Assembly (NCBI GenBank): GCA_002501805.1
Contig: DAOI01000003.1
Span: forward strand, 31,261 to 95,260
Direction: 5' to 3'
DNA from: Euryarchaeota archaeon UBA463
GTDB lineage: Archaea; Thermoplasmatota; Poseidoniia; Poseidoniales; Thalassarchaeaceae
DNA: 64,000 nucleotides
A model generated the notes under the pieces. The model was not told the origin of the DNA. It was given only the letters and a program-made list of their open reading frames with translations, and ran no database searches. The position numbers and the translations under genes are program-made. Positions 1 through 44,348 of this stretch are shown here, in pieces. Each line of letters begins with the position of its first letter. Positions within the stretch are counted from its first letter, which is position 1.

Positions 1-1583
1 TCCAAGTCATAGTACTTCAGCAGATTGATACTAGCTAGATTACAGGCAGTATCATCCAAGAACATGTACTCTGAGCAGGGGTTCGAACCATTTATTCTCC
101 CTGCTTCGGGACAGGTATGCCACTCGTTTATGGTAGTATCAAATTGGACACCGGGATCCGCACAGGCCCATGCTGTGTATGCAACTTTATCCCAAAGTTC
201 TCCAGCGTCCAGAGTTTTACATGCCTCTGGCCCCCTTCCTTCCTTGGCCGCCTTATCCAACTCTGTCCTCCAGTGGAGATCCCAAGTTTCACCATTCTTG
301 ACGGCATCCATGAATGAGTTCGGCACTCTCACGGAGTTGTTACTGTTCTGACCTGACACGGTCATGTAAGCCTCTCCTTGCCAGTCGGTATCGAATACTT
401 CGAAATCGACCCCCTTCCAACCCTGCTTTGCAAGATCAACTATTCTTTGAATATGGGGCTGAGGAACACAGTCTTTGATTGCCTTTACCATGGCTTTCTT
501 CAACTCAGCGTTTTCACTCTGTTCAAACCTATCTCCATCACTATCAGAATCCCAAATCGCCTCCATCAAGGAATTCGCATGCTTCTGAAGAATATTACTG
601 CCAATCACCAGAGCAGACACTTTTTCCTCTTCGCTGCTCTTCCAGTCAATGTACTCTTCGATGTCTGGGTGATCAAGGTCTAGAGTGACCATCTTTGCCG
701 CTCTTCGTGTGGTTCCTCCGGATTTTATGGCACCAGCCGCCCTGTCTCCAATCTTTAGGAATGACAGGAGTCCAGAAGAGCTCCCTCCTCCAGAAAGAGG
801 CTCGCCCGCTCCTCTAATCTTGGAGAAGTTAGAGCCAGTACCCGAACCATACTTGAACAGTAGAGCCTCACGATTCCATAGACCCATAATGGAATCTTTG
901 CCCCCTACCAGGGAATCCCCGACAGACTGTATGAAGCAAGCATGTGGCTGTGGATGCTCGTATGCATTAACAGAGTACTCTAGTTCGCCCGTTAATGGGT
1001 CGATGTAGGAATGACCCTGAGCAGGCCCCTCAATTCCATATGCCCAATGTAGGCCAGTGTTGAACCATTGAGGACTATTGGGCGCCGATCTCTGGCTAGC
1101 CACTAAGAAGCACATCTCATCGAAGTACGACCTAGCATCAGCTTCGCTAGCGAAGTATCCATGCTTCCATCCCCAGTACGTCCAAGTCCCAGCGAGTCTT
1201 CGGAAGAGCTCCCTTCCATCTCTCTCACCAGTGTATCTCTCTCCTGCATCGATTGACTCTAATTTCTCATGATCAGGCTCACTCCTCTGTAGCCATACTG
1301 GAACTCCGTCTTCTGGTACCTTTCTGAGATGGGCTGGCACTCCTGCCTTCCTCAGATACTTCTGTGCTAGGACCTTTCCAGGCACACCAGAGTAGCCAGA
1401 CGGTAGCCTCACGCCAGTAATCGAGTCTGCCATCGAACCGTCCGGATTTCTGATTTCCGCATCCATCTCAATCCAATCAAACTTCTCGAAAGGATCCTCA
1501 CCAGCGGATGTGAAACGTCGTTCGATTACCATGCCTTTCTCAGTATTCTTCTCATTTTTCGAACTCTTGACTTTCTGTTGCAT
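1..1583 (-). CDS. Ribonucleotide reductase, class I/II large-subunit-like catalytic core (partial; 3' end lies beyond the window start)
   Basis: Hand translation of the minus strand in one frame at three sites gives HTCPEAGRINGSNPCSEYMFLDDTACNLASINL (NxCxE active-site motif plus CNL.SINL), KSGGTTRRAAKMVTLDLDHPDIEEYI, and an N-terminus MQQKVKSSKNEKNTEKGMVIERRFTSAGEDPFEKFDWIEMD. The frame is identical at all three sites. The ORF is absent from the track only because it runs off the window edge. The start could also be the in-frame ATG at 1532. Confidence 0.8.
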   Translation of the reverse strand, partial: MQQKVKSSKNEKNTEKGMVIERRFTSAGEDPFEKFDWIEMDAEIRNPDGSMADSITGVRLPSGYSGVPGKVLAQKYLRKAGVPAHLRKVPEDGVPVWLQRSEPDHEKLESIDAGERYTGERDGRELFRRLAGTWTYWGWKHGYFASEADARSYFDEMCFLVASQRSAPNSPQWFNTGLHWAYGIEGPAQGHSYIDPLTGELEYSVNAYEHPQPHACFIQSVGDSLVGGKDSIMGLWNREALLFKYGSGTGSNFSKIRGAGEPLSGGGSSSGLLSFLKIGDRAAGAIKSGGTTRRAAKMVTLDLDHPDIEEYIDWKSSEEEKVSALVIGSNILQKHANSLMEAIWDSDSDGDRFEQSENAELKKAMVKAIKDCVPQPHIQRIVDLAKQGWKGVDFEVFDTDWQGEAYMTVSGQNSNNSVRVPNSFMDAVKNGETWDLHWRTELDKAAKEGRGPEACKTLDAGELWDKVAYTAWACADPGVQFDTTINEWHTCPEAGRINGSNPCSEYMFLDDTACNLASINLLKYYDL

Positions 1584-11284: not shown

Positions 11285-14200
11285 TCAGGAGTCCAAGTAT
11301 GCCAGCTTGTTAAGCTGTTGAAGATCACCAATTACGCCAAAACCAAACTCTTCTTCTAACGCTCTTGAGACTAGTTTGAAGTCGGAGTCCCTGGTTGCAA
11401 CAACTACACTTCCAACACCCACAGAGAAAGAATCGGCAATAACGGCGGCACTCTTCATTATATCACAATCCCCCTTCTCTGGGTAAATTGACTCCCCCCC
11501 TATCTCTGTTCTTGCGGGGATATCTTCCTTATGCTCCCTCTTATGCTGATCTACTACTCTGAAAATCTCTCTATGATTGGTCAGGAAAACTTCTAGATCT
11601 ATTTCATTGGAGACACTCTCCAGATTATCTCCGTCCCAGTTGTTGAAGATTGAAATTATGGAAGATACTCTCTCTTGTAGAAACTTCTCAGAGACAACCT
11701 CGTCCCATGACGACCTTTCAATATACACGTTTTCAAATAAGTCCAGAACTATATCAGGAGATTTAACACGATTCATGAACTCTCCCATTGCGGCCCTAGG
11801 AATATTCAGTAGCACGCGATCCTCCTTGGCAAGGGACCTCAACTTCCAGTGAAATGCCCTTTGCATCGTCCAATCAAAACTACCAAGGCTATCTGGAGAT
11901 AATTCTCTTAGTAAATCATCCTTGAGGGCATCTATCAGAATATTTGTATCCACCAACACCAAAGGCTTCAGGCCCAAGCTACCAAGGGTCTTTCTTTCCC
12001 TAACTGAAATCTTTCCCGACTGTCTCGTAAACAGATTCCTCTGAGTATTCTGCAGGATTTTCTTCTCCCTACCTTCGAACTCTCCAGATTTCAAAGCTCT
12101 CTCAAACATCCTAAGAGCTCTAATCGGACTCATTTCAGCAACTTGCTCAATAACAGTAACAATTGAAAAGGTATTTTTCTCCTTGGACCTCATTTCAGAA
12201 TCAAATCTCCTCTCAAGATCAGATCTCCTAGATTGCGATGAATGGCTCATCTTCATTATAGCCGCCATTACCCTGCCCTGGAAAGGATCTATTGGGAGTC
12301 CATGCTCAACAGGATACATTTTGATCGATTCCAGAGACTCGACGATAGAGGCACTATCTCCCTCGTCATCCCCGCTGCGCTGCTCGTTGCTTACATGTTC
12401 TATTACTCTCGATGTAGCTCCCAACTGATTCTTTTCTGTATGATCTTTACAGACATTGAGATACATTTTGAATCTGTTTGTTACTGAGGCAGAGAGAGTG
12501 GGATATGCATCAATAAGGGAAACCGCCTCCTTCCATCCTCCTCCATGTGCGAACGAAATCAGAGACCATCGGAGAAATATTGCGGATCTTTCAATATCTA
12601 TTTCCATCAGCTTGGAAGCCGCATCTTTGTACGCCCATGCCGAACCAATCAAATCACCACTCCTCTCTAGTAGAGCGGCCTTAACAATCTGGCATTCGGG
12701 ACTTTTACTATCATTCTCCCTATACCAGGAATCCAATGACTCAATGCCTACAGAGTGTTCGAAAACTAGGTCAGAGGCGAACCTTATTGTTCTCATAGAA
12801 ACGCTATCCGATGAAATCACTGATTCAAGAGAGGAAATAGCTTGGTCCCTACTGGGACCCTCCCCATTTTGGAGATTTACAGCTGCCCTATTGAGAATCA
12901 GTGCAGTTATGACCGCCTCGAAAAGCCTCCTCTCTAATAATGTCAAATCTGCATCGTTAACCGAATTAACTAACTTCTCTATTCTTACTTCCTTAACTAT
13001 TCCATCCCCTTCTGGCCCCAGAGCCATCCTAACCTCTTTCAGAGTCTTCAGTCCTTCAGAATCCAACTTATCATGAACCGCCTCAAGATTGCTGCTTATT
13101 CCATCAAGGAGAGAGATCAGGCCCACACACACCTCAGAAAGTACCCCGTCCCTCTCTGCCTCTTCTATTGATGCAAGAGCTACTCTTCTTGCTTCCAACA
13201 ATTTGGATGAAATCCCTACGGAGTCTTTTGCAGTAATCAAGTGCCACGACAACATGACACGAAATGGATACGCTCTCTGTAACGAAACCTCATCAATTAG
13301 CATGTCAGTTAGCCCCTTTATTTCTGCTGACATGGTAAACGACGATATGATCTCATCAGTATACCTGATTTGATCAATTTTGGAGAGAATACTAGCCGCC
13401 ATTGTCCTAACATGGGATGGAGAATTAGGATGAGAAAGAGCCAATCTGAGACACTCTTCATTGAGTTCTGGCAGGCCAGAGACTATGGAATCAAGTGAAA
13501 TCCCCGTAGAATCACTTGATATCATAGTCAAGCATGTCTTAAGTCCTCTGAGATCATTTACTGCCTTCCCTTCAATGTAGTTTAGAGCAGTAGAGAAATC
13601 TCCAGATTCAACGAGTCCTTCTGATGCTATCCAGGCTAACTTGGATGGAATGCTCCTACCACTCTCTTCGATAATAGAAACGCCCTCCATTGCTAATTCA
13701 AGAGTCATTTCCGTAGGATAAAGATCCACTCTGAGCCATCCTTCTATTTTGATTGCAGAAGATAACTTATCCTCCTCCTTCCTCTCGACAGTCAGGCTCC
13801 AGTCACAATCCTCCTCCTCTCTCAGAGAAATTAGAACACCAAGGTCCCTAGCCACTTCAGAACAGTCTCCTTCTATACTTTCTAACACTCTTCTGGCCCT
13901 ATCAGACTGAGCCGCAGCCAACAATAGGCCCTCAAGTAGCATCGCATCTCCTTCCAAGCCCATTAACGAAGGAGACATCCAATCTTCCCAAAGTTTACGT
14001 CGAGGATTTTTCCTCAAGTCTTTCTCAATCTTCTGAATAACTTTCAATTGTGAAGCTGAAAGTTTGAACGGTGCAACCAAATTCAACCAGCTTCTGAGTG
14101 ATTCGTTATCAGAATAATCTATCCTTGACCCGAATATCCACGGATCTCTTTCTCCAAAACTAGATTCAGGCTCCACAATCGGGAAAAGACCCAGTTCTGC

Positions 14201-14653
14201 CAGAAGGGGGGACTCTCTTGCAAGCCTCTCCCATACAGGATGAACTCCATTCCTACACTCCTGCCTTATCACATCCATCTCTTGATCCCAAGACGCCTTC
14301 CACTCATCTTTACCAAGCCTATTTTTTTGTGCTATGAGTACAGCAAGTCTGTATCCACAGGAATAACCACTGGAGATAGCAGCATCCGGTGAAGCGAGTT
14401 TATCCGAAGTCGTAGTAATCTTTCCACGACCCCCTCTTCTTCCTACTCTACGTGAGCGATTCTTTCTCATATTATCATCAGAGCCGACCATATCAACGGC
14501 CTCCTTACTAGCGGCAATCAAAGCAAGAGCCTTCCAACTCGGATCTTGTAGCAATGACCACGAGGGGGCATTAGTAAGCTTCTTTCTCCGTGTTGCTTCA
14601 TGGTCACCAGACCTGCTTAGTATCTCCAAACAGTCCAGAAGGTACTCCTCCAT
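11285..14653 (-). CDS. Large (1122 aa) protein: ~870-aa helical/repeat N-terminal region of unknown function plus a C-terminal split PIN-domain nuclease
   Basis: The C-terminus has KPLVLVDTNILIDAL (PIN acidic motif 1), then DCDIMKSAAVIADSF and VVVATRDSDF (PIN distal acidic motifs), separated by a ~200-aa insertion. No Walker motifs or other recognizable catalytic signature occur in the N-terminal 850 aa. Confidence 0.6.
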   Translation of the reverse strand: MEEYLLDCLEILSRSGDHEATRRKKLTNAPSWSLLQDPSWKALALIAASKEAVDMVGSDDNMRKNRSRRVGRRGGRGKITTTSDKLASPDAAISSGYSCGYRLAVLIAQKNRLGKDEWKASWDQEMDVIRQECRNGVHPVWERLARESPLLAELGLFPIVEPESSFGERDPWIFGSRIDYSDNESLRSWLNLVAPFKLSASQLKVIQKIEKDLRKNPRRKLWEDWMSPSLMGLEGDAMLLEGLLLAAAQSDRARRVLESIEGDCSEVARDLGVLISLREEEDCDWSLTVERKEEDKLSSAIKIEGWLRVDLYPTEMTLELAMEGVSIIEESGRSIPSKLAWIASEGLVESGDFSTALNYIEGKAVNDLRGLKTCLTMISSDSTGISLDSIVSGLPELNEECLRLALSHPNSPSHVRTMAASILSKIDQIRYTDEIISSFTMSAEIKGLTDMLIDEVSLQRAYPFRVMLSWHLITAKDSVGISSKLLEARRVALASIEEAERDGVLSEVCVGLISLLDGISSNLEAVHDKLDSEGLKTLKEVRMALGPEGDGIVKEVRIEKLVNSVNDADLTLLERRLFEAVITALILNRAAVNLQNGEGPSRDQAISSLESVISSDSVSMRTIRFASDLVFEHSVGIESLDSWYRENDSKSPECQIVKAALLERSGDLIGSAWAYKDAASKLMEIDIERSAIFLRWSLISFAHGGGWKEAVSLIDAYPTLSASVTNRFKMYLNVCKDHTEKNQLGATSRVIEHVSNEQRSGDDEGDSASIVESLESIKMYPVEHGLPIDPFQGRVMAAIMKMSHSSQSRRSDLERRFDSEMRSKEKNTFSIVTVIEQVAEMSPIRALRMFERALKSGEFEGREKKILQNTQRNLFTRQSGKISVRERKTLGSLGLKPLVLVDTNILIDALKDDLLRELSPDSLGSFDWTMQRAFHWKLRSLAKEDRVLLNIPRAAMGEFMNRVKSPDIVLDLFENVYIERSSWDEVVSEKFLQERVSSIISIFNNWDGDNLESVSNEIDLEVFLTNHREIFRVVDQHKREHKEDIPARTEIGGESIYPEKGDCDIMKSAAVIADSFSVGVGSVVVATRDSDFKLVSRALEEEFGFGVIGDLQQLNKLAYLDS

Positions 14654-28284: not shown

Positions 28285-31200
28285 TCATAGGAAGTCTTCC
28301 AAGGTCATCACCGTCACTCTATCATTATTGAATAAAGAGTCTACACTATCAGACATCCATCCAACACGCTGTTTGGTGTAATCATCAACTCCGTAGCTCT
28401 CCATAACTTCCTTCGTAACCTGGATATATTTCCTGACTGCCCCCTCCGAGACTGTTAGAACGACATTTCCCCCACAGGTCGCAACCCCGTCATCGGAACT
28501 CGAGAATCTTGGACCGCCCGAGATTCCCGATGCCCTCTGCACGCACTTACCAGCTAGAGGCATTCTTCGATAGGAGTGCCCACATTTTACACATCGTACT
28601 TTCTGCCTGGTGAATGCCATCATATTGCCCCTCATATCTGGGAGGAAATGGGATTCAATGACTTGCGATGCCACTCTATCCACACTGACTGACCTGAGCC
28701 TACTCCCGAGCGCTAGTTGCTCACCCATCTTGTCGGTCATACTCACAAGCGTCTTGTATGCAGAATTTACTGGCCCAGAATCCAAGTCACCGGAATCATG
28801 CGTCCATCCATATCCTCGCAGATCTCCAATACTGCCCAGCCTGTCGCTCACTAGGTCCACTAAGTCCGATGCTTCGTTGGGGTGTGGTTGTGACAATGTA
28901 GCCTCATAGAAGTCGCGAGAATAGCTCCATGAGCAATCTACGTTCAATGCCTCCTTGTCTATTTCCATCGGATTCAGCCTGGTCGTCAGAACCAGAGGAG
29001 CATCCATCCTGCCTCCCCTGCCTGCAGGTAGAATTTCCTTAGAGAAATTTAGCAAACCATCCATGAGCATCATTATGCTGTCCTCGTCTCCATCACAATT
29101 CCTTCTTTTGGCTGCGTGGAAAAGTGGGTGAGCGTATCCGGCTGACGAGGAAGTCCATCCAATTAAGCGACACAACACTCCTCCAGATGTATGCGGTGCG
29201 AGACCGATGGCTAATCTTCCGACTAAGTCTTTCTCGCTTGTCGCGTTATAGAATGGTTCCATTTGATAGAATCTAACTAGAAGCTCATCCACGAAATTAC
29301 AAGTAGCGAGAAGGTGATCCTTGGATCTAATTGACGGGATAAAGTCCTGTGGAAGTAACTCCAACATCTGACTATCAGATTTCACGATATTCCCTCGGAT
29401 ATCATGAGTATATCCCAGTTCAACAAGAGCCTCCCAAGATGTACCAATCTCTGCCGGTTTGAAGTGTGTTACTGGTACATCACTCATATCATACCTTGAG
29501 GTTCCGTCTCTGAACACAGAAACCCCGTGCTTTGCCCTCAGAATGCCCTTCTCTAATGGTTCGGGGGACTGTCCTATCGAAACTAGTCCCTTTACAGCTT
29601 TGATCTTCGAGGGAAGCTTGTCCAAGCCCAAAGCCCTTCTTTTTACTTCAAGAATCGATGAGACCGGGACTGTCGTAAACTCACCCCGGCGCCTCCTCTT
29701 GCCTCCACGGCTCTTACGGACCTCCGTTCTTCCTCCACACTCTTTGGCCACATTGGGGTCAGGTCTGACATGACACCTGATATGTGGAGACTCTGAACCA
29801 CATTTGCTACAGATTCTCGGACCCATCTGAACTCTAATACTTCCTTTGGAGGACGCCTCTCCTAGGAGCCTCTGAGGTCCCCCACTCTCAGCAATGGGAT
29901 ATAGCGAGTGAACCAATGGTTTCATCTCCCTGACTCCGGACTTTTCCGGTCTGCCCATTCTAGCCCCAATTCTACACGTTGCAGAGTCCTCCCATCTCAT
30001 CGAGGACAATTTCCTAACTAGCCACAACGAACCATCAACAATGTGATCATCTAGTAACGAAACCGATCTATTCAGAGAGGCTACATTCTCGGGCCCCGGA
30101 TCAGAGATTCCCTGTGCAGCTTCTTCTCCGATCGCTTCTGTCTCCAGTGTGCCCTTTCCTTGTTGCATAGCTAGGGTAGTTGCTTGTACTCTGGCAAGCC
30201 CCCTTCTACTCTCCAGCTCACTCTTTCTCTTTCCCTCAGCTTGGACTATCTTCTTGGCTTCTCTGACTCTGACGAGCCTATCTTCGATGTGCCCCATTGC
30301 ATCTAAGGAACTAACTACTACGCCTTCCTCGCTCATCAGTCCTAGTCCTTCCAATAGACCTTCCCAGTTAGATGAAATCACGATATCTCCAGCCTCATGA
30401 TAGTGTTGCAAACCAAGAGTCAGAAGACATGATTTTACAATTCCATGATTTCTGACAGACATCCACGAAGGCCACATGTCAAAATCCGGCTCGTGTGTCG
30501 AGTCCAAGTCCTGTAAAGAATCAGGGCTCCAATCTCTCGACGCCCCACTTATCCTCAATCCACTTTCTTCAATCTCTGACCCAGACAATGCTTGGATAAG
30601 AGGTCTAGTGATTGAAATCGGAAGGTCAGACCACCATAGATTCCAAGGAGGAGGGACCGCTGTCCCAAATGCCTCAGATATTCTCTTCGACTGTTGCCAA
30701 GTCAAATCTATATCTCTCAGAAAAAGATACCACTCTCTCTTCCGCCACTCCCTCTCAAGAGCATCCTCCCCCCCACGATTTATTGCGCCATTAAAGGGTA
30801 GCCCTTTGGGCAGAGTATCAAGCCCGACCCCCATAATCTCTGCAAAGGTTGAGACCTTCTGAGGATGATCCATAGAATCCAGAAGATCTGCGGCCCACCA
30901 ATCTCTATTGTAAGCTGAGGGAACCAGATTCTTGTTGTTCTCAAGAAACTCTCCGAAACCCATCAGAATCTCTCCATTATCCCAAACAGAAACAACCCTT
31001 TCTCGAATCAATTTCCACTCATCCAGGGTGTGTACACGTCTGAACTCACCATCGCCAAGAATTACCATTGGCCCCTCGATATCAGTACAGGGAGTAACTG
31101 CACAAGCCTTCCCAGGACGCTCAATCTTCATCTGAGTTCCAACCGATAGGAACCCACCTGCCGCCTCCATCGATACTGGATTCAAACCAGCAGCCGCCAA

Positions 31201-32259
31201 ACCAGTGGCTCTACTTCTCCCATATCTAAGTCTGAATCCCCCGGGTTCACCAGGCTCGCCAAAGATAGGCCTTCCAGCGATCACATCATCCATGTATCTT
31301 GAAATCTCAGGAATTTGCCTGCTTTTGAAGCTATCAGACTCACCCTCATCGCTCTTTCCCTTACTAGCAAACTGAGAGATAAATTCCCATCCTGGAATCT
31401 CCATTCTTTCCGTGTGCTTCACAATTTTTGGAGCCTTGAGGCACAAACCTTCACCGATAACCAACATCACTCCACCTCGAACCCTGGTCCTGAATGAACC
31501 ATTCTCATTCTGTACGTTCTTGACCTCCTTGAATCCAGCACACTCCTGCTTCTCAGTCTCCTCTCCGTTAACCATTACTGGACACGCCCTAACGATTACC
31601 TCTACTTCCTCAGGAGGAGGTTTGTACTGAAGGCCAACTCTGTATAGTCCAAACTCTTCCTTCACTCTTTCCACCTCTCTTGTGGATGGATTATATCTCC
31701 CCAGACCAAGCTCACGTCTGATCATGTCACCAATTAGTACGCACAGAGCTTGAGCAGTTCCTCCGGCGGCTCTTATTGGTCCGCAGAAATCAATAGAAAG
31801 AAACTCTGAGCCATCTGAATTATTGAGAATCCTGACCGCACCAATACCATCCAGTGGAGCTACAAGAACAGCTTCTGTAAGTACAGCTAGGCCAACTCTG
31901 AGTCCACAATCTATTGCCTCTCGGAGATCTCCGTCACGCTCATACATCCGTTTTGCCACATTAACCGCTATCTGGATGGATGCACTCTCTCTGTCAGTTT
32001 TCAGAAGTATTGCTCGAAGGTCGTCCTCTATCTCTAGACCCTTCAGATACTCCTCGAGGAGTTTCTCAGTCCTACTTGCCAAATCCGCGGCTCTTGGGAT
32101 TTCTATTTCAGTGCTGAAGTCAAGCCCCCTCGCCTTGGCCTGGAGAGCTATGTCATATACTTCCTGAGTCCTCAAATCAAGCCATTCTTGGTAGGATTCA
32201 ACTTCGGATGAAAGCCTGTCTGAATCATACTCCGACACAGATTCACGATGCTCAACCAT
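28285..32259 (-). CDS. DNA polymerase II (PolD) large subunit DP2
   Basis: 1324 aa. C-terminal zinc-finger block CVKCGHSYRRMPLAGKC..ATCGGNVVLTVSEGAVRKYI. N-terminal and central regions are typical of DP2. Confidence 0.85.
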   Translation of the reverse strand: MVEHRESVSEYDSDRLSSEVESYQEWLDLRTQEVYDIALQAKARGLDFSTEIEIPRAADLASRTEKLLEEYLKGLEIEDDLRAILLKTDRESASIQIAVNVAKRMYERDGDLREAIDCGLRVGLAVLTEAVLVAPLDGIGAVRILNNSDGSEFLSIDFCGPIRAAGGTAQALCVLIGDMIRRELGLGRYNPSTREVERVKEEFGLYRVGLQYKPPPEEVEVIVRACPVMVNGEETEKQECAGFKEVKNVQNENGSFRTRVRGGVMLVIGEGLCLKAPKIVKHTERMEIPGWEFISQFASKGKSDEGESDSFKSRQIPEISRYMDDVIAGRPIFGEPGEPGGFRLRYGRSRATGLAAAGLNPVSMEAAGGFLSVGTQMKIERPGKACAVTPCTDIEGPMVILGDGEFRRVHTLDEWKLIRERVVSVWDNGEILMGFGEFLENNKNLVPSAYNRDWWAADLLDSMDHPQKVSTFAEIMGVGLDTLPKGLPFNGAINRGGEDALEREWRKREWYLFLRDIDLTWQQSKRISEAFGTAVPPPWNLWWSDLPISITRPLIQALSGSEIEESGLRISGASRDWSPDSLQDLDSTHEPDFDMWPSWMSVRNHGIVKSCLLTLGLQHYHEAGDIVISSNWEGLLEGLGLMSEEGVVVSSLDAMGHIEDRLVRVREAKKIVQAEGKRKSELESRRGLARVQATTLAMQQGKGTLETEAIGEEAAQGISDPGPENVASLNRSVSLLDDHIVDGSLWLVRKLSSMRWEDSATCRIGARMGRPEKSGVREMKPLVHSLYPIAESGGPQRLLGEASSKGSIRVQMGPRICSKCGSESPHIRCHVRPDPNVAKECGGRTEVRKSRGGKRRRRGEFTTVPVSSILEVKRRALGLDKLPSKIKAVKGLVSIGQSPEPLEKGILRAKHGVSVFRDGTSRYDMSDVPVTHFKPAEIGTSWEALVELGYTHDIRGNIVKSDSQMLELLPQDFIPSIRSKDHLLATCNFVDELLVRFYQMEPFYNATSEKDLVGRLAIGLAPHTSGGVLCRLIGWTSSSAGYAHPLFHAAKRRNCDGDEDSIMMLMDGLLNFSKEILPAGRGGRMDAPLVLTTRLNPMEIDKEALNVDCSWSYSRDFYEATLSQPHPNEASDLVDLVSDRLGSIGDLRGYGWTHDSGDLDSGPVNSAYKTLVSMTDKMGEQLALGSRLRSVSVDRVASQVIESHFLPDMRGNMMAFTRQKVRCVKCGHSYRRMPLAGKCVQRASGISGGPRFSSSDDGVATCGGNVVLTVSEGAVRKYIQVTKEVMESYGVDDYTKQRVGWMSDSVDSLFNNDRVTVMTLEDFL

Positions 32260-39873: not shown

Positions 39874-40063
39874 AATCTAGGCAGTTGACTATCGAACCCT
39901 TAAACAGAAAATATTTCTTACAATTATTGACTAATTGATACCTTACAACTCTACTCAGTAGATTCTGGAGGCATTCATTGGATTGGTTTAATAACTCCCA
40001 TCTTGTAGTAGTATTTGGCAAGACGGGGTAAGAAAAGTTTAGCCTAACCTAAGGGATGATATT

Positions 40064-40471
40064 GTGACAGAGCTAATCAAAAAGATGAATGAAGCCCTAG
40101 CTTGGGAACTAAGAGCGATAAATATGTATGCACATTACGCCGCAAATATAACTGGCATCAATCGGCTTCAACTTTCACCAATGTTCAATACTGAAATGAC
40201 TGAGTCAATAGAGCATGCCGATATTGTTCGTAAGGGAATTGTTCAATTGGGGGGAATTCCAGTTACAGAACGTGACCCTCGCCCAATTATACACACAACA
40301 GATTACATTGAAATGTTGAATTACTCTCTTGAGACTGAGATTAGAGCGTCAGAAGTTTATTCGGAACTCCTCCCCTTGATTGAACAAACTGACGATTTAT
40401 ACGATTCGATGGAGCAGATATATCTCGCCGAGCTAAAAAGCGTCGAGGAGATACGACTCTTGGTTCGATGA
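40064..40471 (+). CDS. Ferritin-like four-helix-bundle protein (Dps/bacterioferritin-like)
   Basis: 135 aa with a helical pattern and acidic/His residues (WELRAINMYAHY, ESIEHADIV, LETEIRASEVY) consistent with a ferritin-like di-iron site. GTG start. Confidence 0.4.
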   Translation: MTELIKKMNEALAWELRAINMYAHYAANITGINRLQLSPMFNTEMTESIEHADIVRKGIVQLGGIPVTERDPRPIIHTTDYIEMLNYSLETEIRASEVYSELLPLIEQTDDLYDSMEQIYLAELKSVEEIRLLVR

Positions 40472-40493
40472 TCCGGCCCAATGAACCGAATCT

Positions 40494-42338
40494 ATGATGA
40501 GTTCTCATACCCTCCAGAGGGACGTGCTCCCGCGAGTCGTGACCGTATTCTTGGTCCTAATATTGGTTAGCCCAACTCTATCCGGGTGCTTGGAATCAGA
40601 TTCAGGAATAGATAATTCTGTCGAGACTACACATTGGTTACCACCTGTCGAGGAACGATCAGGGAAGGAATACAGAATTGATGACGTATTCAGTAGGGTC
40701 TCAAAAAATGGTACATATGACACAGGAGAGGTCCAGTCAATCTTCGTGCCCGTACCCTCGATTACGGCTTCAGACGGAGGGGCAGGACTCACGGGCGGGG
40801 CCGAAGTTCATCTCGGATTGTGGCTTCCAGAAAAGGAAGGATGCGATTTGACAATATCTGAAGTTCTTGAAGAATGCAAGGTCCCGGTCATTGCCGAGAT
40901 AGGCCCGTACTATGATGATGGAGACGTTGATGCTCTCACTCCCGCAGATAGACTCGGAAGGTTCCTAATTGAGAATTATGTTCAACACGGGTACGGCGTA
41001 GCCCAGGTTTCAGTTTTTGGAACAGGGCAATCAAATCACTGCATGGACCTGATGGGTCATGATGAGCAAGCTGGCATCAAGGCGGCAGTAGACTGGTTAG
41101 GGACTCAATCATGGTCCAATGGAAAGGTAGGTGCAATAGGTAAATCATACGATGGAAGCACTCCTTGGAATGCGGCCGCATCAGGATCCGATTATCTAGC
41201 TACCATTGTTCCAATGTCTGGATTGATAGGTGTGCATGATTTGATGTGGAGAAATGGCAGTATGGAAGCAAGAGGGGCGATAATGCACAATGGGGTATAC
41301 GGCTCATTCGGCTTGGACGGGGATAATGGGGACATCGAGAACGCCTGTGAGGGATATGTCGAGGGATACTACGCAGGACCAGCCGCATACATGACGGGAG
41401 ACAATCTAGCATGGACCGGATCTGATTATTGGGAGGAAAGGCATTTCCTGACTAATGCTCTAGAAATTTATAATGGTTCGATATATATCATACACGGCCT
41501 ACAAGACTGGAATGTCGATCCCCATATGGCATTCCCTGCTCACCAAATGTCCATAGATGCAGGTTTCGATGTCAAGGGACTTTATGGTCAATGGGCACAT
41601 GATTATCCAGACCGAGAAAGCGGGCACTCCTCACTGTCATCAGGAAGAGGCGCTGAGGCCTTTCCATACACCCTGAGGTGGGACTGGGCCGACGATATGT
41701 TGGAGTGGTTCGATTTCTATTTGCTAGACAAGGGGCCAAAACCAAGACTAGTTGCAGAGGTGCAGGACAATATGGGTGCTTGGAGAGTTGAGCAGACCTA
41801 TCCTCCTCTTGAAGCGAATCCAATCGTTATAGGGATGAATGAATGTTCAATAGTTGGCGGTAGTGATACGATAACTACTACCTCTAGTCTGATGATTGAA
41901 TGCCCCGAATTTGAATCTCTGACTAGAATAGTTGGAACTCCCACCTTTCATGTCGAGGCTACTATTTCCCCGTTCTCCACCAGTGGGCATCTCTTCGTAG
42001 AGATGGTACAATCAAGCTCTGACATGCATCTAGGACACGCTGTAATGGATTTACGGTTTCATGAAGGAGGGAACCAAGGAAGCCCTCTAGTCCCCGGACA
42101 GACAGTTCTGGCAAAGATGGAGTTCTTTGGAATGGATGTAGTAGTACCTGAGGGAGATGGAATTCGTCTGATAATCAGTCAAACTGGCGAGGATTATGTC
42201 CCAAGTCCAGTCTCAACATTTCCCGTTTCTCTCTCATTGGGGAGCGAGAGTACTCTTTCTCTGCCATCTCTTGACAGGGGATGCTCAGATCTATTTCTCC
42301 CTCCTATGCAACAGCCATATCTGGGTTGTCTGGAATAA
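40494..42338 (+). CDS. Secreted/lipoprotein-like CocE/NonD-family (S15 X-Pro dipeptidyl-peptidase-like) hydrolase
   Basis: N-terminal signal with LSGC lipobox-like cysteine, the nucleophile motif GAIGKSYDGSTPW (GxSYxG), and a C-terminal beta-sandwich region. Confidence 0.65.
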   Translation: MMSSHTLQRDVLPRVVTVFLVLILVSPTLSGCLESDSGIDNSVETTHWLPPVEERSGKEYRIDDVFSRVSKNGTYDTGEVQSIFVPVPSITASDGGAGLTGGAEVHLGLWLPEKEGCDLTISEVLEECKVPVIAEIGPYYDDGDVDALTPADRLGRFLIENYVQHGYGVAQVSVFGTGQSNHCMDLMGHDEQAGIKAAVDWLGTQSWSNGKVGAIGKSYDGSTPWNAAASGSDYLATIVPMSGLIGVHDLMWRNGSMEARGAIMHNGVYGSFGLDGDNGDIENACEGYVEGYYAGPAAYMTGDNLAWTGSDYWEERHFLTNALEIYNGSIYIIHGLQDWNVDPHMAFPAHQMSIDAGFDVKGLYGQWAHDYPDRESGHSSLSSGRGAEAFPYTLRWDWADDMLEWFDFYLLDKGPKPRLVAEVQDNMGAWRVEQTYPPLEANPIVIGMNECSIVGGSDTITTTSSLMIECPEFESLTRIVGTPTFHVEATISPFSTSGHLFVEMVQSSSDMHLGHAVMDLRFHEGGNQGSPLVPGQTVLAKMEFFGMDVVVPEGDGIRLIISQTGEDYVPSPVSTFPVSLSLGSESTLSLPSLDRGCSDLFLPPMQQPYLGCLE

Positions 42339-42383
42339 ATCGAATTCCAAACCCTTGATGCGGGAGGGAGCTCTCGGAACACC

Positions 42384-43928
42384 ATGTCAGACGGCATCCC
42401 TCGTGTCAGTATTCCTGTCATTGACAGGATAATCCTCCACTTGTGGGAACAGGACCATCAAGCGGATCATTATATTGTAACAAGTGAAGTAACAAGAACA
42501 GGAATTTCTGAGGTATGCGCAATGCATCCTCCAAATGTTTCCCGTGCAATGAGGGAGCTCATGTCCAATGGCCTTGTCTCTGAGCATTCTAGAAGTGTCA
42601 GAGGCGAAGATCGTCGCCAGAAGACATGGCAATTAACCGAAGATGGAAGATTGGAAGCTAGGCAGAGGATTGCTAATCTAAGAACTACCACCGTTTTATT
42701 GAGGGGAAAGAAAGGTAAGCTATTGGAAATAAGGGCAGACGAGGCCGCAAAAAAACTCGAAACAAATCTCTCGCTACTACAGGTATTGATGCACGCCCAA
42801 CATGAGGGAGTCCTCAATTTCGGAGATATTAGATTTGGTGCTATTGTGTCGATGCCAGAGAGAAAAAAACCCACTCCAAACCTACTTTCTGGTGCCTATT
42901 CAACCTATCGAAACCTTCCACCTGTGACTAGAGAGATACATGGAAGACTGATGGAGAAAGACATACTCGACTCCTGGCTCTCGTCCAGAATCCCATTGTT
43001 AGCCATATCTGGAATCGCTGGCTGTGGAAAAACAACACTTACCTCACACTGGCTAAACCATACCATCTCAGTAGCTCCTGGGTATGAAGTAATGTACTAT
43101 CCTTGTCAGCCATGGGACACGCCTCTAGGGATTGCAACCAGCCTACTCCACAAGATAGGTGTCGGAGTAGATGATGGGAAGCACGATCCTTACAATATTC
43201 TAGAAGCTCTCCCACTAAGGCCCGGTGTAGAAATTGATATCGATTCCTATAGGAGAAGGCTGACGGCTCATTTACTGGACGAATCCGGTTTAGATACTAA
43301 GAAAGAAACCGAACTTCTGGTTGTTCTAGACGATGTTCACAATATAGGGCCGGATGGGAACTACCTCTTTGGCGCTCTCTTACAGGTAGCCGAGATCGCT
43401 CCATTAAGACTAATATTGATCTCAAGAAATAGACTGTCATTCTATGACACTAGAGATGTTCATACAAGAGAGAGAGTTAGAGAACTACACCTGGCTGGTC
43501 TTTCTATTGAGGAAGTTAATACTTGGATAGCTTCAATGAACCTTCCCAATGAAACAGAGGTCGAAAAAATCCATAGTATCACAGGTGGACACCCATTGGC
43601 AGTAGAGCTATTGGAACTTTATGGAAAGACCGTACACGAGGATTGGACTCGTTTTCTTGATCAGGAGATTCTAGATGTTCTCCCTCCGGATAGCAGGGAG
43701 ATTCTCTCTATTCTATCTGTTTCTGATAGACCGGTTCCATGGGAAATTATAGCTAAGGCCGCAGAACATGATGGCCCCCCTCCACTCGAGCTCATAGAAA
43801 GGGGCCTTATGCTGGAACTAGAAGATGGAATGTGGTTACATGAAGCTATCAGGGCTAGACTACTTAGGGACGTAGGAAACCCTCTAGAGGATAGATCTAT
43901 CAAACTCAGAAAAGCTTTCGAATCTTAG
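42384..43928 (+). CDS. wHTH (MarR-like) plus NB-ARC-type STAND NTPase
   Basis: N-terminal GISEVCAMHPPNVSRAMRELMSNGLV (winged helix). Walker A ISGIAGCGKTTLTSHW, Walker B LLVVLDDVHNIG (compare hhhhDDVW in NB-ARC), and ITGGHPLAVELL (GLPL-like motif). No TPR/WD sensor repeats follow. Confidence 0.6.
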   Translation: MSDGIPRVSIPVIDRIILHLWEQDHQADHYIVTSEVTRTGISEVCAMHPPNVSRAMRELMSNGLVSEHSRSVRGEDRRQKTWQLTEDGRLEARQRIANLRTTTVLLRGKKGKLLEIRADEAAKKLETNLSLLQVLMHAQHEGVLNFGDIRFGAIVSMPERKKPTPNLLSGAYSTYRNLPPVTREIHGRLMEKDILDSWLSSRIPLLAISGIAGCGKTTLTSHWLNHTISVAPGYEVMYYPCQPWDTPLGIATSLLHKIGVGVDDGKHDPYNILEALPLRPGVEIDIDSYRRRLTAHLLDESGLDTKKETELLVVLDDVHNIGPDGNYLFGALLQVAEIAPLRLILISRNRLSFYDTRDVHTRERVRELHLAGLSIEEVNTWIASMNLPNETEVEKIHSITGGHPLAVELLELYGKTVHEDWTRFLDQEILDVLPPDSREILSILSVSDRPVPWEIIAKAAEHDGPPPLELIERGLMLELEDGMWLHEAIRARLLRDVGNPLEDRSIKLRKAFES

Positions 43929-44281
43929 GACATATGTCGATTCAGCCAAGAGTCCATACCTGGCTTTGGCATAGCACCAGTCATTCTATCAACGACCTCT
44001 CCATCCTTGAATAGTATCAGTGCCGGAATCCCTCTGACTCCGAATCTTCCTGGACTTAGTGGATTAACATCGGTATTCACCTTGGCTATTGTAATCTCTC
44101 TCTCGGTCGCTATCTGACTCAATACTGGAGCAATCATTTTGCATGGACCGCACCAAGGAGCCCAGAAGTCAACTAGAACCCAACCCCCGCTTTTTGTAAC
44201 TACATCAAAGTCCGAATCACTAGCATCAATCACTTGTCCCATGGGTCCACCCAAACACCTGAGAGAGGGGCACCGTATCAA
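43925..44281 (-). CDS. trxA: Thioredoxin
   Basis: WAPWCGPCKMIAPVL active site. The true start is probably the internal ATG (MGQVIDAS..). Confidence 0.85.
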   Translation of the reverse strand: MIRCPSLRCLGGPMGQVIDASDSDFDVVTKSGGWVLVDFWAPWCGPCKMIAPVLSQIATEREITIAKVNTDVNPLSPGRFGVRGIPALILFKDGEVVDRMTGAMPKPGMDSWLNRHMS

Positions 44282-44348
44282 CCTGTGTCTTACTAATGAT
44301 ATCCAAGGGATTGAGAACCCCCCCCTCCTCGCCTAGTTCAGAGCGTAC

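Follow-up and report, generated by a model that had tools for sequence, protein, structure and literature searches.

STAND proteins, among them Apaf-1, NLRs, MalT and Avs, are normally kept off by an arm and a sensor. To our knowledge, the behavior of a bare NOD, the module formed by a nucleotide-binding domain (NBD), a helical domain (HD) and a winged-helix domain (WHD), and other ways of gating it have been learned chiefly through engineered truncations and CED-4. PH0952 of Pyrococcus horikoshii (PDB 6MFV) is an archaeal predicted transcription factor for which we know of no regulon or inducer. Its N-terminal winged-helix effector (ArsR/MarR-like) is followed by the NOD, an arm of ~100 residues (394–496) and a TPR sensor of ~250 residues. 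In the PH0952 clade, which is sister to the APAF1 clade and not within it, autoinhibition comes from the arm and the TPR sensor, which clamp the NBD. P296 of PH0952, located in the conserved GxP motif, touches the adenine, while H382 hydrogen-bonds the ADP phosphates (PMC6468293).

Other described systems share parts of this layout. MalT of Escherichia coli (PDB 8BOB) is a STAND transcription activator controlled by ATP-dependent multimerization. It is without an N-terminal winged helix-turn-helix (wHTH), and its LuxR-type DNA-binding domain is C-terminal, after the arm and a TPR-like maltotriose sensor. MalY and MalK bind the MalT NOD directly (PMC10427625), which provides a precedent for sensor-independent input. 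CED-4 of Caenorhabditis elegans, a sensor-less homologue of Apaf-1, is a natural effector-NOD protein without a repeat sensor and has a trans inhibitor, CED-9; its effector is a CARD, a helical domain is kept after the WHD, and it functions in eukaryotic apoptosis. The bacterial AfsR and large SARP regulators of Streptomyces combine an N-terminal winged helix, here an OmpR-type DNA-binding domain with BTAD, with a STAND ATPase and a TPR region. The archaeal class Thermoplasmata and phylum Thermoplasmatota contain wHTH-NOD-TPR proteins of 780–1090 residues, often as several paralogues per genome, which sources label 'TPR repeat protein / DNA-binding MarR family transcriptional regulator'.

Here we describe a 514-residue wHTH-STAND protein encoded in a window of 64,000 nucleotides (the whole stretch of DNA that was analyzed). 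The gene is likely the Poseidoniales (Marine Group II) orthologue of the Thermoplasmatota PH0952-like STAND transcription regulators, with the arm and TPR sensor lost in the Poseidoniales ancestor, and would encode a nucleotide-switched, oligomerizing regulator. As a variant within a known family of regulators the protein is only moderately unusual, and it overturns nothing known. Its interest lies in being a natural, anciently fixed predicted transcription factor of the 'effector + NOD only' type, constrained across an order of globally abundant uncultured marine archaea.

Domain architecture and switch motifs

The reading frame at 42384–43928 on the forward strand is a real gene under strong purifying selection, as dN/dS in this frame is 0.04–0.09 against three orthologues. 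We found 498 homologues of the protein. The best 120 of these are 62–96% identical to it and 365–539 residues long; 118 of them fall within 507–539 residues and the other two are fragments. Across 77 unique Poseidoniales sequences, 127 of the 514 positions (25%) are at least 97% conserved. The features of the locus are listed in Table 1.

Table 1. Features of the STAND locus in window coordinates.
Feature	Position	Strand	Residues	Basis or remark
S15 (X-Pro dipeptidyl-peptidase-type) peptidase gene, upstream neighbor	40494..42338	+		Pfam Peptidase_S15 and PepX_C
Promoter-like box CCAAACCCTTGATG	42347..42360	+		TTGATG at -29..-24 from ATG; upstream comparison of orthologues
STAND gene, predicted wHTH-STAND protein	42384..43928	+	514 aa	ATG start, stop codon included; ORF, homologues, conservation, dN/dS
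MarR/PadR-like wHTH (predicted)	42384..42683	+	1-100	Pfam, MarR-family PDB matches, AF2, conservation
Beta-hairpin and two-helix mini-module, after wHTH (predicted)	42684..42818	+	101-145	AF2; SlyA alignment to residue 140
Linker, predicted disordered	42819..42932	+	146-183	AF2 pLDDT; conservation
Linker motif GDIRFG	42822-42839	+	147-152	Poseidoniales-specific, invariant
Linker motif GxxxTY	42891-42908	+	170-175	Poseidoniales-specific, invariant
NBD	42933..43499	+	184-372	AAA_16, NPHP3_N, AAA_22 and NB-ARC matches
GR motif		+	187-188	G187 R188, in NBD
Walker A GIAGCGKT	43011-43034	+	210-217
Walker B LLVVLDD	43314-43334	+	311-317
Sensor-1 Arg (LILISR)	43425-43427	+	348
Helical domain HD/ARC1	43500..43673	+	373-430	Aligned to PH0952
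GxP motif TGGHPL	43581-43598	+	400-405	GGHPLAV at 401-407
STAND winged-helix domain WHD/ARC2	43674..43874	+	431-497	Aligned to PH0952; AF2 WHD fold
MHD-type motif LHE	43839-43841 (His codon)	+	485-487	Aligned to PH0952 'VHD'
Single C-terminal helix	43875..43925	+	498-514 (17 aa)	AF2 helix 500-513
Thioredoxin gene, convergent	43925..44281	-		Stop overlaps STAND stop by 4 nt; Pfam Thioredoxin 2.4e-26

Sequence and model comparisons indicate that the protein consists of a complete STAND core, NBD-HD-WHD, placed behind a wHTH. Three Pfam models exceed their thresholds: AAA_16 (36.7 bits), NPHP3_N (28.5 bits) and NB-ARC (PF00931; 25.0 bits against a cut-off of 23.5, the match spanning only model positions 10–77 of 248). 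The NB-ARC match in the TPR-bearing relatives extends over positions 3–221 at about 1e-11. PH0952 is the best sequence match and the sole significant one when the single sequence is searched against the PDB with phmmer (6mfv, E = 3.8e-9; query 308–509 to chain 107–303). With a family profile, PH0952 is matched over its whole NOD at 3.8e-48, followed by MalT (2.2e-9, over the NOD), plant NLRs (9e-9 to 1e-7) and AfsR (8e-7, at the P-loop and over about 55 residues only). No GerE/LuxR match is detected in the protein, and the MalT model PRK04841 reaches 10.8 bits, its cut-off being 537.

The AF2 model shows the domain order wHTH, NBD, HD and WHD, with a pLDDT of 83.4 after TPR-bearing relatives were added to an alignment of 24 close orthologues, which had given 70.6. 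STAND NODs (MalT, PH0952, CED-4 and active Apaf-1) make up the whole of the top 12 Foldseek matches of this model in the PDB, MalT being first at 6.5e-11. Globally, the model superposes best on CED-4 and on active Apaf-1, with an rmsd of about 6.2 Å and a TM of up to 0.56. The model lies about 6 Å from such open or active forms and 14–15 Å from closed forms, although the conformational state of an AF2 model is unreliable as evidence in either direction. Sequence identity to CED-4 is only 13–14%, and the resemblance is an analogy of architecture rather than a sign of close kinship.

The protein has the full set of STAND switch motifs: Walker A, Walker B (DD), Arg348, Pro404 and His486. R188, G210, G213, G215, K216, D316 and R348 do not vary among Poseidoniales and TPR-bearing relatives; for R348 this applies to one alignment, another giving at least 90% conservation. 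G402-H403-P404-L405 and H486 are either invariant or conserved to 90% or more over the same two groups. In a set of 76 sequences, G210, G213, G215, K216, D316, G402 and P404 show no substitution. Within the order, H486 is 100% conserved, and the relatives carry VHD, MHD or LHD at the same place. P404 aligns with the proline of 'GHPLML' in PH0952 (P296), and H486 with its ADP-binding WHD histidine in 'VHD' (H382). The sequence-only reading had assigned the protein to the NB-ARC-like STAND NTPases from a Walker B and a GGHPLAV motif, both of which are found as described. It had made this assignment depend on the arginine-finger/sensor features of NB-ARC; the sensor-1 Arg, the GxP Pro and the MHD-type His are all conserved.

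That reading had also set the STAND clade against ORC/Cdc6 and generic AAA+ proteins, and the best matches, PH0952, MalT, CED-4/Apaf-1 and plant NLRs, uphold its choice. An Orc1/Cdc6-type or generic AAA+ protein (a replication initiator or a clamp-loader-like ATPase) is scarcely credible. ORC/Cdc6 structures do appear in the Foldseek search from rank 13 (E around 1e-7), and the orc1/cdc6 model TIGR02928 is matched at the P-loop only with E = 0.0094, but at 14.8 bits against a cut-off of 181.3. They are absent among the 60 listed PDB matches of the family profile, which PH0952 leads, and the STAND-specific GxP and WHD-His motifs are aligned. The wHTH is, moreover, N-terminal and MarR-like, not the C-terminal winged helix of Cdc6.

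The proposed MarR-like winged helix at the N-terminus is likewise borne out, by Pfam and by weak structure matches to the MarR family. Pfam identifies HTH_Crp_2 (8.5e-5), PadR and HTH_27. SlyA is weakly similar when the single sequence is searched against the PDB (E = 0.15, the alignment running to residue 140), and MepR and SlyA are matched at about 1e-3, still weakly, with the family profile. The AF2 pLDDT of this domain is about 90–97, with the recognition helix at ~49–61 (PNVSRAMREL) and the wing at 65–84 (RGEDRRQKTWQLT). Residues P50, N51, V52, S53, R54, R70, R77, K80, T81, W82 and Q83 are at least 97% conserved order-wide.

In contrast to PH0952, the family has ~85 extra residues between the wHTH and the NOD, consisting of a mini-domain and a linker. 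The mini-domain is modeled at pLDDT 83–90, with strands at 103–107 and 113–117 and helices at 118–124 and 131–141, and is also present in the alignment of the TPR-bearing relatives. Pfam gives no match to residues 101–145, and their sole PDB similarity, a weak one, is to the C-terminal helices of MarR proteins; the module may be the counterpart of the MarR C-terminal dimerization helices. The linker falls below pLDDT 50 at residues 150–173, yet it contains two motifs that are invariant in Poseidoniales, GDIRFG and GxxxTY, whereas the linker of the Thermoplasmata/Thermoplasmatota relatives is variable. All 77 Poseidoniales sequences have G147, D148, I149, R150, G152, G170, T174 and Y175. Conservation across 191 TPR-bearing relatives is no higher than 2% in seven of these eight columns and 15% in the G152 column, and gaps make up 46% of the segment as a whole.

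The short C-terminus

Pfam detects no TPR, WD or LRR repeats in the 514-residue protein, which stops 17 residues past the WHD, in agreement with the sequence-only reading of a STAND NTPase that lacks a repeat array. The arm domain found in PH0952 is absent too; these 17 residues (one helix) are all that follows the WHD, and they leave no room for TPR. Residues 498–514 align with '..YH..AA.YY', with which the arm/TPR region of relatives begins, and are the least conserved part of the protein, with a mean top-residue frequency of 0.39 versus 0.66–0.72 elsewhere. We read this helix as a putative remnant of the first arm helix.

Homologues elsewhere had been suggested as a check for C-terminal repeats, and relatives do carry TPR arrays. 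Among 108 cluster representatives that match nearly the full profile, three end at most 5 residues past the last matched position: the Poseidoniales cluster, an unrelated 476-residue cluster, and a 423-residue sequence whose match reaches no further than profile position 454. Tails of 240–620 residues are found in most of the others and are TPR arrays in the representatives scanned. The named relatives belong to Thermoplasmata/Thermoplasmatota, the same phylum. These proteins (P0142, P0285 and P0295 are examples) are collinear with the 514-residue protein over residues 1–500, including the mini-domain, at 22–28% identity and with the same invariant motifs. Thermoplasmatota relatives have the whole N-terminal 500 residues in common with it, plus arm and TPR tails of 270–620 residues.

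In an NJ tree, which is crude and of uncertain rooting (MalT-like sequences landed inside one ancestral clade), the Poseidoniales clade is monophyletic in 40/40 bootstraps, and each of its sister groups has a tail of at least 270 residues. The short form is nested among the TPR-bearing relatives in this tree. Poseidoniales, with both Thalassarchaeaceae and Poseidoniaceae, account for every one of the best 80 GTDB species loci, at 47–95% identity, and 81 complete orthologous ORFs from the fetched loci are 496–527 residues long. Since the relatives bear C-terminal TPR arrays, the short form would be derived. We interpret it as an ancient, fixed loss of the arm and sensor, not a truncation artefact, because it is monophyletic and nested, and occurs in both Poseidoniales families, in 80 species or more. 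The direction of the change, a loss, rests on parsimony and on the apparently vestigial C-terminal helix. AfsR and the large SARP regulators resemble the proposed ancestral form in domain logic.

We also considered a split sensor acting in trans. TPR-tail queries had no match in the window or the 89 orthologous loci, and a TPR version was rejected. A WD40 version was rejected as well. The divergent neighbor in Poseidoniaceae, a 1,150-residue surface WD40 protein, is extracellular, as indicated by its signal peptide, TSP3-like calcium repeats and C-terminal membrane anchor, and it is missing from the window.

Genomic neighborhood and putative promoter

As the sequence-only reading stated, an S15-type peptidase gene with a signal/lipobox-like N-terminus (VLILVSPTLSGC) lies 45 bp upstream (gap 42339–42383) on the same strand. 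Regulators often adjoin their targets, and the gap is 2–62 bp in relatives. The slot between an M32 carboxypeptidase gene and the STAND gene is occupied by VIT1, ferritin or S15 genes. The protein could thus be pictured as a dedicated regulator of the secreted peptidase, and/or of ferritin/VIT1, encoded in an operon and sensing peptides or iron, but we consider this improbable. The S15 gene is upstream in only a part of Thalassarchaeaceae. It is missing at ten or more loci of this family (L007, L015–L017, L026, L029, L030 and L035–L037) and at all loci of 56% identity or less, all Poseidoniaceae among them, yet the regulator is highly conserved throughout. The adjacency is restricted to a Thalassarchaeaceae subclade, a functional partnership is probably to be dismissed, and we rejected the operon or regulon link on this ground.

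The promoter-like box, at -35 to -24, also speaks against a shared operon. It lies within the 45-bp gap after S15, which suggests a separate transcription unit. The box, AAC-N-CTTGATG (or CTTCAATG/CTTGAAC), is found at a similar distance from the start in most Poseidoniales loci inspected, whichever gene is upstream, and adjoins the called start in two loci (L029 and L030). We infer a BRE/TATA-like core promoter with a leaderless mRNA, and the STAND gene seems to have a promoter of its own. AAC-N-CTTGATG was also considered as a specific operator and rejected: similar TTGA-type boxes precede many other, unrelated genes, and it is probably a generic promoter. The exact 10-mer of the box shows no enrichment over shuffles. 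No operator was found upstream of the STAND gene, where the sole conserved element looks like a generic promoter, and the Trx-RPE intergenic region contains promoter-like boxes only.

The thioredoxin (Trx) gene is the sole neighbor retained order-wide. The convergent STAND(+)/Trx(-) pair occurs in nearly all 89 loci, in both families. It is followed by RPE in nearly all of them, BolA-Grx is nearby in most, and many have VIT1 or ferritin upstream. The syntenic block around the gene includes Trx, RPE, BolA, Grx, EamA and M24 and extends over the two families at 47–95% identity. This neighborhood could be taken to favor a redox- or iron-responsive regulator, coupled to thioredoxin and BolA-glutaredoxin, whose His and Cys residues sense metal or oxidation. 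C45, H48, C241, H256, H319, H360 and H418 are invariant order-wide, and a His-rich motif, HLWEQDHQADHY, is present in the window's subclade. Such invariance is undistinctive, however, when 25% of all positions are at least 97% conserved. The convergent neighbors are not co-transcribed, the whole block is conserved housekeeping synteny, and searches with domain models detected no metal-binding domain in the protein. Taken together, we regard a redox or iron sensor as a poor prospect. The more specific idea of sensing by the His-rich N-terminus and the P-loop Cys214 was rejected, as these residues are invariant in the window's subclade but vary order-wide (H25 62%, H29 53%, C214 52%).

The same synteny bears on the suggestion of the sequence-only reading that the protein might be a decapitated relative of antiviral STAND proteins. 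STAND NTPases are frequent in defense systems, and the NOD fold does match Avs3 and Avs4 (8dgc and 8dgf), at the lower Foldseek ranks of 19–38. A remnant or minimal immune sensor, Avs-like or of another defense NTPase type, is nevertheless very improbable. No STAND/Avs-type PADLOC model is matched; the only two PADLOC matches, both weak (E = 0.0013 and 0.022), align the winged helix (residues 7–93) to CARF3--CARF models. The predicted effector, a winged helix that would bind DNA, is neither a nuclease or protease nor a TIR domain. The low dN/dS and constant length are the opposite of what is seen in patchy, fast-evolving defense genes, and the gene sits in a conserved core block across two families. 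The STAND gene is a core-genome gene, not a defense gene, and the antiviral suggestion is not sustained. Its companion, that the protein is a minimal STAND-type transcriptional switch, is probably correct.

A putative nucleotide switch and its input

For the orthologue of the PH0952-like regulators favored here, mechanism, DNA and ATP binding, hydrolysis, oligomerization and target genes are taken from the family by homology. The ancestral protein would have consisted of a winged-helix DNA-binding domain, a linker, the NOD, an arm and a TPR sensor. The last two would have been deleted in the Poseidoniales ancestor, with the 'effector + NOD' portion retained in both families. The NOD could act as a switch set by its nucleotide. 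With ADP bound, the protein would be a monomer in which His486 (WHD) and Pro404 (GxP motif) clamp the nucleotide. Binding of ATP, involving Lys216, Asp316/317 and Arg348, would open the NOD and lead to head-to-tail multimerization. Multimers would bring the MarR-like winged helices together, allowing cooperative binding of arrayed DNA sites and control of transcription.

As the arm and sensor that autoinhibit PH0952 and MalT are absent, the switch would have to be set differently. It may respond to nucleotide state alone. A partner could instead bind the NOD in trans, as CED-9 does for CED-4 or MalY and MalK do for MalT. The input may also involve the GDIRFG and GxxxTY motifs of the disordered linker, and these two invariant motifs appear to be the best lead to it. 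It is conceivable, although rather unlikely, that a new input device evolved after the loss of the arm and TPR, in which the two motifs would either latch the NBD in cis, keeping it autoinhibited, or dock a trans regulator. If true, linker-motif gating would be a previously undescribed way to gate a STAND switch, and the most abundant planktonic archaea would have in this protein the master copy of a 'minimal' STAND regulator.

As a compact model, the protein could be used to study the basal STAND switch, and it is among very few candidate signal-integrating regulators conserved in Marine Group II genomes. The gene is currently labeled 'AAA family ATPase', 'hypothetical protein' or 'MarR/PadR regulator' in the sources, labels that a precise annotation could replace.

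Domain architecture and STAND identity

The gene encoding the STAND protein is real, as demonstrated by its 498 homologues in a search of 5.8 billion proteins and by its low dN/dS. The overlapping minus-strand ORFs (80–134 aa) are all contained within it. The best 120 of the 498 homologues are 62–96% identical and 365–539 aa long; 118 of them measure 507–539 aa and two are fragments. Three orthologues with 88–95% protein identity give dN/dS values of 0.09, 0.07 and 0.04 for the frame (Nei-Gojobori), with low non-synonymous divergence in every domain, and 127 of the 514 positions are ≥97% conserved among the orthologous ORFs of Poseidoniales. Databases label the family as 'AAA family ATPase', 'hypothetical protein' or 'MarR/PadR regulator', and no published description of the Poseidoniales short STAND protein was found.

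The domain layout in the table was taken from a second AlphaFold model, built from 76 sequences including distant relatives (pLDDT 83.4); the first, with 24 close orthologues as input, was mediocre (pLDDT 70.6). Pfam matches are AAA_16 (E = 7.7e-9), NPHP3_N (2e-6), AAA_22 (1.3e-5), NB-ARC (1.4e-5; 25.0 bits vs a threshold of 23.5, covering model positions 10–77 of 248 only) and, at the N-terminus, HTH_Crp_2 (8.5e-5) alongside PadR and HTH_27. No repeat domain was detected by Pfam, in agreement with the sequence-only reading, which had noted the lack of C-terminal repeats. The N-terminal 140 residues are weakly MarR-like (SlyA, E = 0.15 with the single sequence; MepR/SlyA, ~1e-3 with the profile). 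A His-rich motif, HLWEQDHQADHY, spans wHTH helix 1 and the loop after it; it is invariant in closer orthologues (≥62% identity), while order-wide H25 is conserved in 62% and H29 in 53%.

Features of the STAND gene, its product and the surrounding loci (window positions unless residues or another locus are named)
Feature	Position	Strand	Remark
STAND gene	42384..43928	+	ATG start, 514 codons, single long ORF there
Winged helix-turn-helix	residues 1-100		AlphaFold model
His-rich motif	42438-42473 (residues 19-30)
Small beta-hairpin and two-helix module	residues 101-145		AlphaFold model
Linker motif 1	G147-D-I-R-F-G152		predicted disordered linker
Disordered linker	residues about 150-173		AlphaFold model
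Linker motif 2	G170-x-x-x-T174-Y175		predicted disordered linker
NBD	residues about 184-372		AlphaFold model
Helical domain	residues 373-430		AlphaFold model
Winged-helix domain (WHD)	residues 431-497		AlphaFold model
Single terminal helix	residues 500-513		AlphaFold model
Thioredoxin gene	43925-44281	-	converges on STAND gene; stops overlap by 4 nt (43925-43928)
M32 carboxypeptidase-to-STAND slot	39874-42338		equivalents in orthologous loci L001-L037
Ferritin-like gene	40064-40471	+	135 aa
TTGA-type box upstream of STAND gene	42347-42360		also upstream of STAND start in, e.g., L007, L036, L058
TTGA-type box	2164-2173	-
TTGA-type box	about 44305-44320
~1,150-aa divergent protein	L058:2472-5909; L084:2425-5874; L041:2452-5907	-	orthologous loci of other Poseidoniales
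Very long ORF	28285-32259	-	about 1,324 aa
Very long ORF	11285-14653	-	about 1,122 aa

PH0952 of Pyrococcus horikoshii (6MFV) was the only solved structure with a significant E-value in a single-sequence search (query residues 308–509 aligned to chain residues 107–303). A profile of the window family and its distant relatives, searched against the PDB, matched PH0952 over the whole nucleotide-binding, helical and winged-helix unit (NOD; E = 3.8e-48), followed by MalT (2.2e-9), plant NLRs (9e-9 to 1e-7) and AfsR (8e-7); there was no ORC/Cdc6 chain among the 60 matches listed. In Foldseek, STAND NODs (MalT, PH0952, CED-4 and active Apaf-1) occupy the first 12 ranks and ORC/Cdc6 appears from rank 13; against the orc1/cdc6 NCBIfam model the protein reaches 14.8 bits, with a cut-off of 181. 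An ORC/Cdc6 or generic AAA+ identity, named by the sequence-only reading as what would refute it, was rejected since STAND proteins lead in both sequence and fold and the orc1/cdc6 model falls far below its cut-off. The NB-ARC-like core proposed there is a close description, but the precise home of the protein, by descent, is the PH0952-like clade.

The P-loop module, Walker B and GGHPLAV noted in that reading are confirmed: Walker A is GIAGCGKT (210–217), Walker B LLVVLDD (311–317), and GGHPLAV spans 401–407. The GR dipeptide upstream of the P-loop (R188), Walker A and B, sensor-1 R348, the GxP motif and the WHD histidine are conserved in Poseidoniales and distant relatives. P404 aligns with the proline of PH0952 'GHPLML', and H486 with the histidine of its 'VHD'. 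In PH0952, the GxP-motif proline P296 contacts adenine and H382 hydrogen-bonds to the ADP phosphates (PMC6468293).

Loss of the arm and TPR sensor

When the profile was run against 1.84 billion cluster representatives, the window family appeared as a single 50% cluster (522 aa), with some fragments besides. The relatives that come next at full length (E = 1e-49 to 1e-32) measure 780–1090 aa, of which the first ~480 residues align with residues 1 to about 500 of the query. Only three of 108 near-full-profile representatives end ≤5 residues after the last matched position: the Poseidoniales cluster, an unrelated 476-aa cluster, and a 423-aa sequence that looks truncated because its match stops at profile position 454. 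A few others keep 27–145 residues beyond the match, and the rest have tails of 168–620 aa, mostly >240 aa. Whether homologues carry C-terminal repeats had been raised as a check for truncation; of 10 representatives scanned, 8 have a tail made up of TPR arrays (TPR_12, TPR_MalT and others). Those relatives that carry a name come from Thermoplasmata/Thermoplasmatota archaea, whose genomes often encode several paralogues, and are annotated by JGI as 'TPR repeat protein / DNA-binding MarR family transcriptional regulator'.

When each GTDB species was scanned through one genome, the best 80 loci were all from Poseidoniales, with identities of 55–95% in Thalassarchaeaceae and 47–52% in Poseidoniaceae/Poseidonia; the complete orthologous ORFs from all fetched loci (n = 81) encode 496–527 aa. 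As this short form occurs in both families, loss of the arm and sensor dates back to the origin of Poseidoniales or earlier. The absent C-terminus thus reflects an ancient loss, after which the short form was retained. A neighbour-joining tree built on the NOD, crude and of uncertain root, unites the Poseidoniales sequences in one clade (40/40 bootstraps), nested among proteins with tails ≥270 aa. The last 17 residues align with the first arm helix of the relatives ('..YH..AA.YY') and are less conserved than any other part of the protein, as would fit a vestige of the arm. The window protein is a naturally minimal STAND regulator, conserved order-wide.

Other, independent sensor-less lineages occur in the Thermoplasmatota family, including P0259 (476 aa, a cluster of 21), P0335, P0321 and P0168 (about 540–547 aa). 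One such lineage ends directly after the WHD, as the window protein does; others keep about 65–75 residues past it, possibly a partial arm. In the same crude tree with its uncertain root, the Poseidoniales clade has none of these short forms as its sister group, and sensor loss thus appears to have been repeated within the family.

Putative switch mechanism

As judged from its sequence, the protein combines a DNA-binding-type winged helix with a complete NOD that retains its motifs, all strongly constrained. These features and the STAND matches support the suggestion of a minimal STAND-type transcriptional switch, which would work like the STAND transcription factors PH0952, MalT and AfsR. By comparison with MalT, PH0952 and Apaf-1, a closed ADP-bound monomer would be clamped by H486 and P404, ATP-dependent opening would lead to multimerisation, and the multimers would bring their winged helices together at arrayed DNA sites, thereby regulating transcription.

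In PH0952 and MalT, the NBD is held closed by the arm and TPR sensor, and the inducer works through both (PMC6468293). The window protein, unlike the PH0952-like clade, has neither, and its switch would therefore be gated differently. CED-4, an architectural parallel, has no sensor and is controlled by CED-9. For MalT, gating additionally comes from MalY and MalK, which act by binding to the NOD (PMC10427625); 8BOB, the top fold match to the window protein, is a MalT complex with such a regulator.

The named residues of the two linker motifs are 100% conserved in 77 Poseidoniales sequences, except F151 (91%). The same columns are essentially unconserved in 191 TPR-bearing relatives (≤2% for 7 of 8 invariant residues; about 15% for the F151 and G152 columns), where the linker segment is 46% gaps. 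These motifs might represent a new gating device. The AlphaFold model superimposes on open CED-4 and active Apaf-1 with an rmsd of about 6 Å, vs 14–15 Å for closed Apaf-1 or PH0952; the better fit to open forms is compatible with reduced autoinhibition, and at most hints at it. The protein is of interest as a model of a basal STAND switch and as a conserved regulator in the uncultured Marine Group II archaea.

Genomic context and transcription

The STAND gene sits in a conserved core block in the window and its relatives. In the latter the order is PQQ-like propeller(-), M32 carboxypeptidase(-), VIT1(-) or ferritin(+), S15 peptidase(+), STAND(+), thioredoxin(-), ribulose-phosphate epimerase, BolA, glutaredoxin, EamA and M24 peptidase. 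The convergent thioredoxin gene, followed by ribulose-phosphate 3-epimerase, are the only neighbours kept throughout the order. The tail-to-tail STAND/thioredoxin pair persists in both families even where all upstream genes differ, and BolA-glutaredoxin lies near it in most loci.

The gene is a housekeeping-type regulator, not a defence-island gene. A decapitated relative of antiviral STAND proteins had been offered as the other possibility. That idea finds no support in the conserved block or in PADLOC, which gave no STAND/Avs-type match; its only hits were two weak matches of the winged helix (residues 7–93) to CARF3 models (E = 0.0013 and 0.022). Neither the window nor any of the 89 loci encodes a homologue of the TPR tails.

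A secreted S15 peptidase gene had been noted 45 bp upstream, and indeed its ORF ends at 42338 and encodes a signal/lipobox-like N-terminus. A link between the two genes is not supported: S15 is absent upstream in at least 10 Thalassarchaeaceae loci and in every locus at ≤56% identity. The gap contains an AAC-N-CTTGATG-type box (TTGATG at -29..-24 of the ATG) that recurs upstream of the STAND start codon in most lineages; in two of the loci inspected, L029 and L030, it lies directly against the called start, which means that either the spacing or the start call is different there. This promoter-like box inside the gap argues for transcription of the STAND gene independently of S15. TTGA-type boxes also precede many other window genes, and the thioredoxin and epimerase genes in relatives, and the exact 10-mer AACNCTTGAW is not statistically enriched (3 found vs 1.46 expected from shuffles). 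The box is probably a generic Poseidoniales BRE/TATA-like core promoter of leaderless mRNA. No specific operator was found upstream of the STAND gene, where the conserved box looks generic. Many start codons, in the window as in Poseidoniales loci, have a box of this type (AACCCTTGAT, AACCCTTGAA, ATTGAGAACC and GTTGATAGG) about 24–35 nt before them.

The slot between M32 carboxypeptidase and STAND varies in content, holding a VIT1-type iron transporter (-), whose N-terminus is in some cases rubrerythrin-like, or a ferritin-like gene, and/or the S15 peptidase (+), in combinations that differ among close relatives. In Poseidoniaceae and deep Thalassarchaeaceae, the product of the divergent neighbour is about 1,150 aa long, conserved at 37–65% identity in more than 40 loci and without a homologue in the window. 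Its signal peptide, WD40 propeller, long TSP3-like DxDGDG calcium-binding repeats and C-terminal transmembrane helix (membrane anchor), followed by a cytoplasmic tail, mark it as a surface protein, and it was rejected as a cytoplasmic sensor. A crude ORF map of the window also contains two very long ORFs, both on the minus strand.
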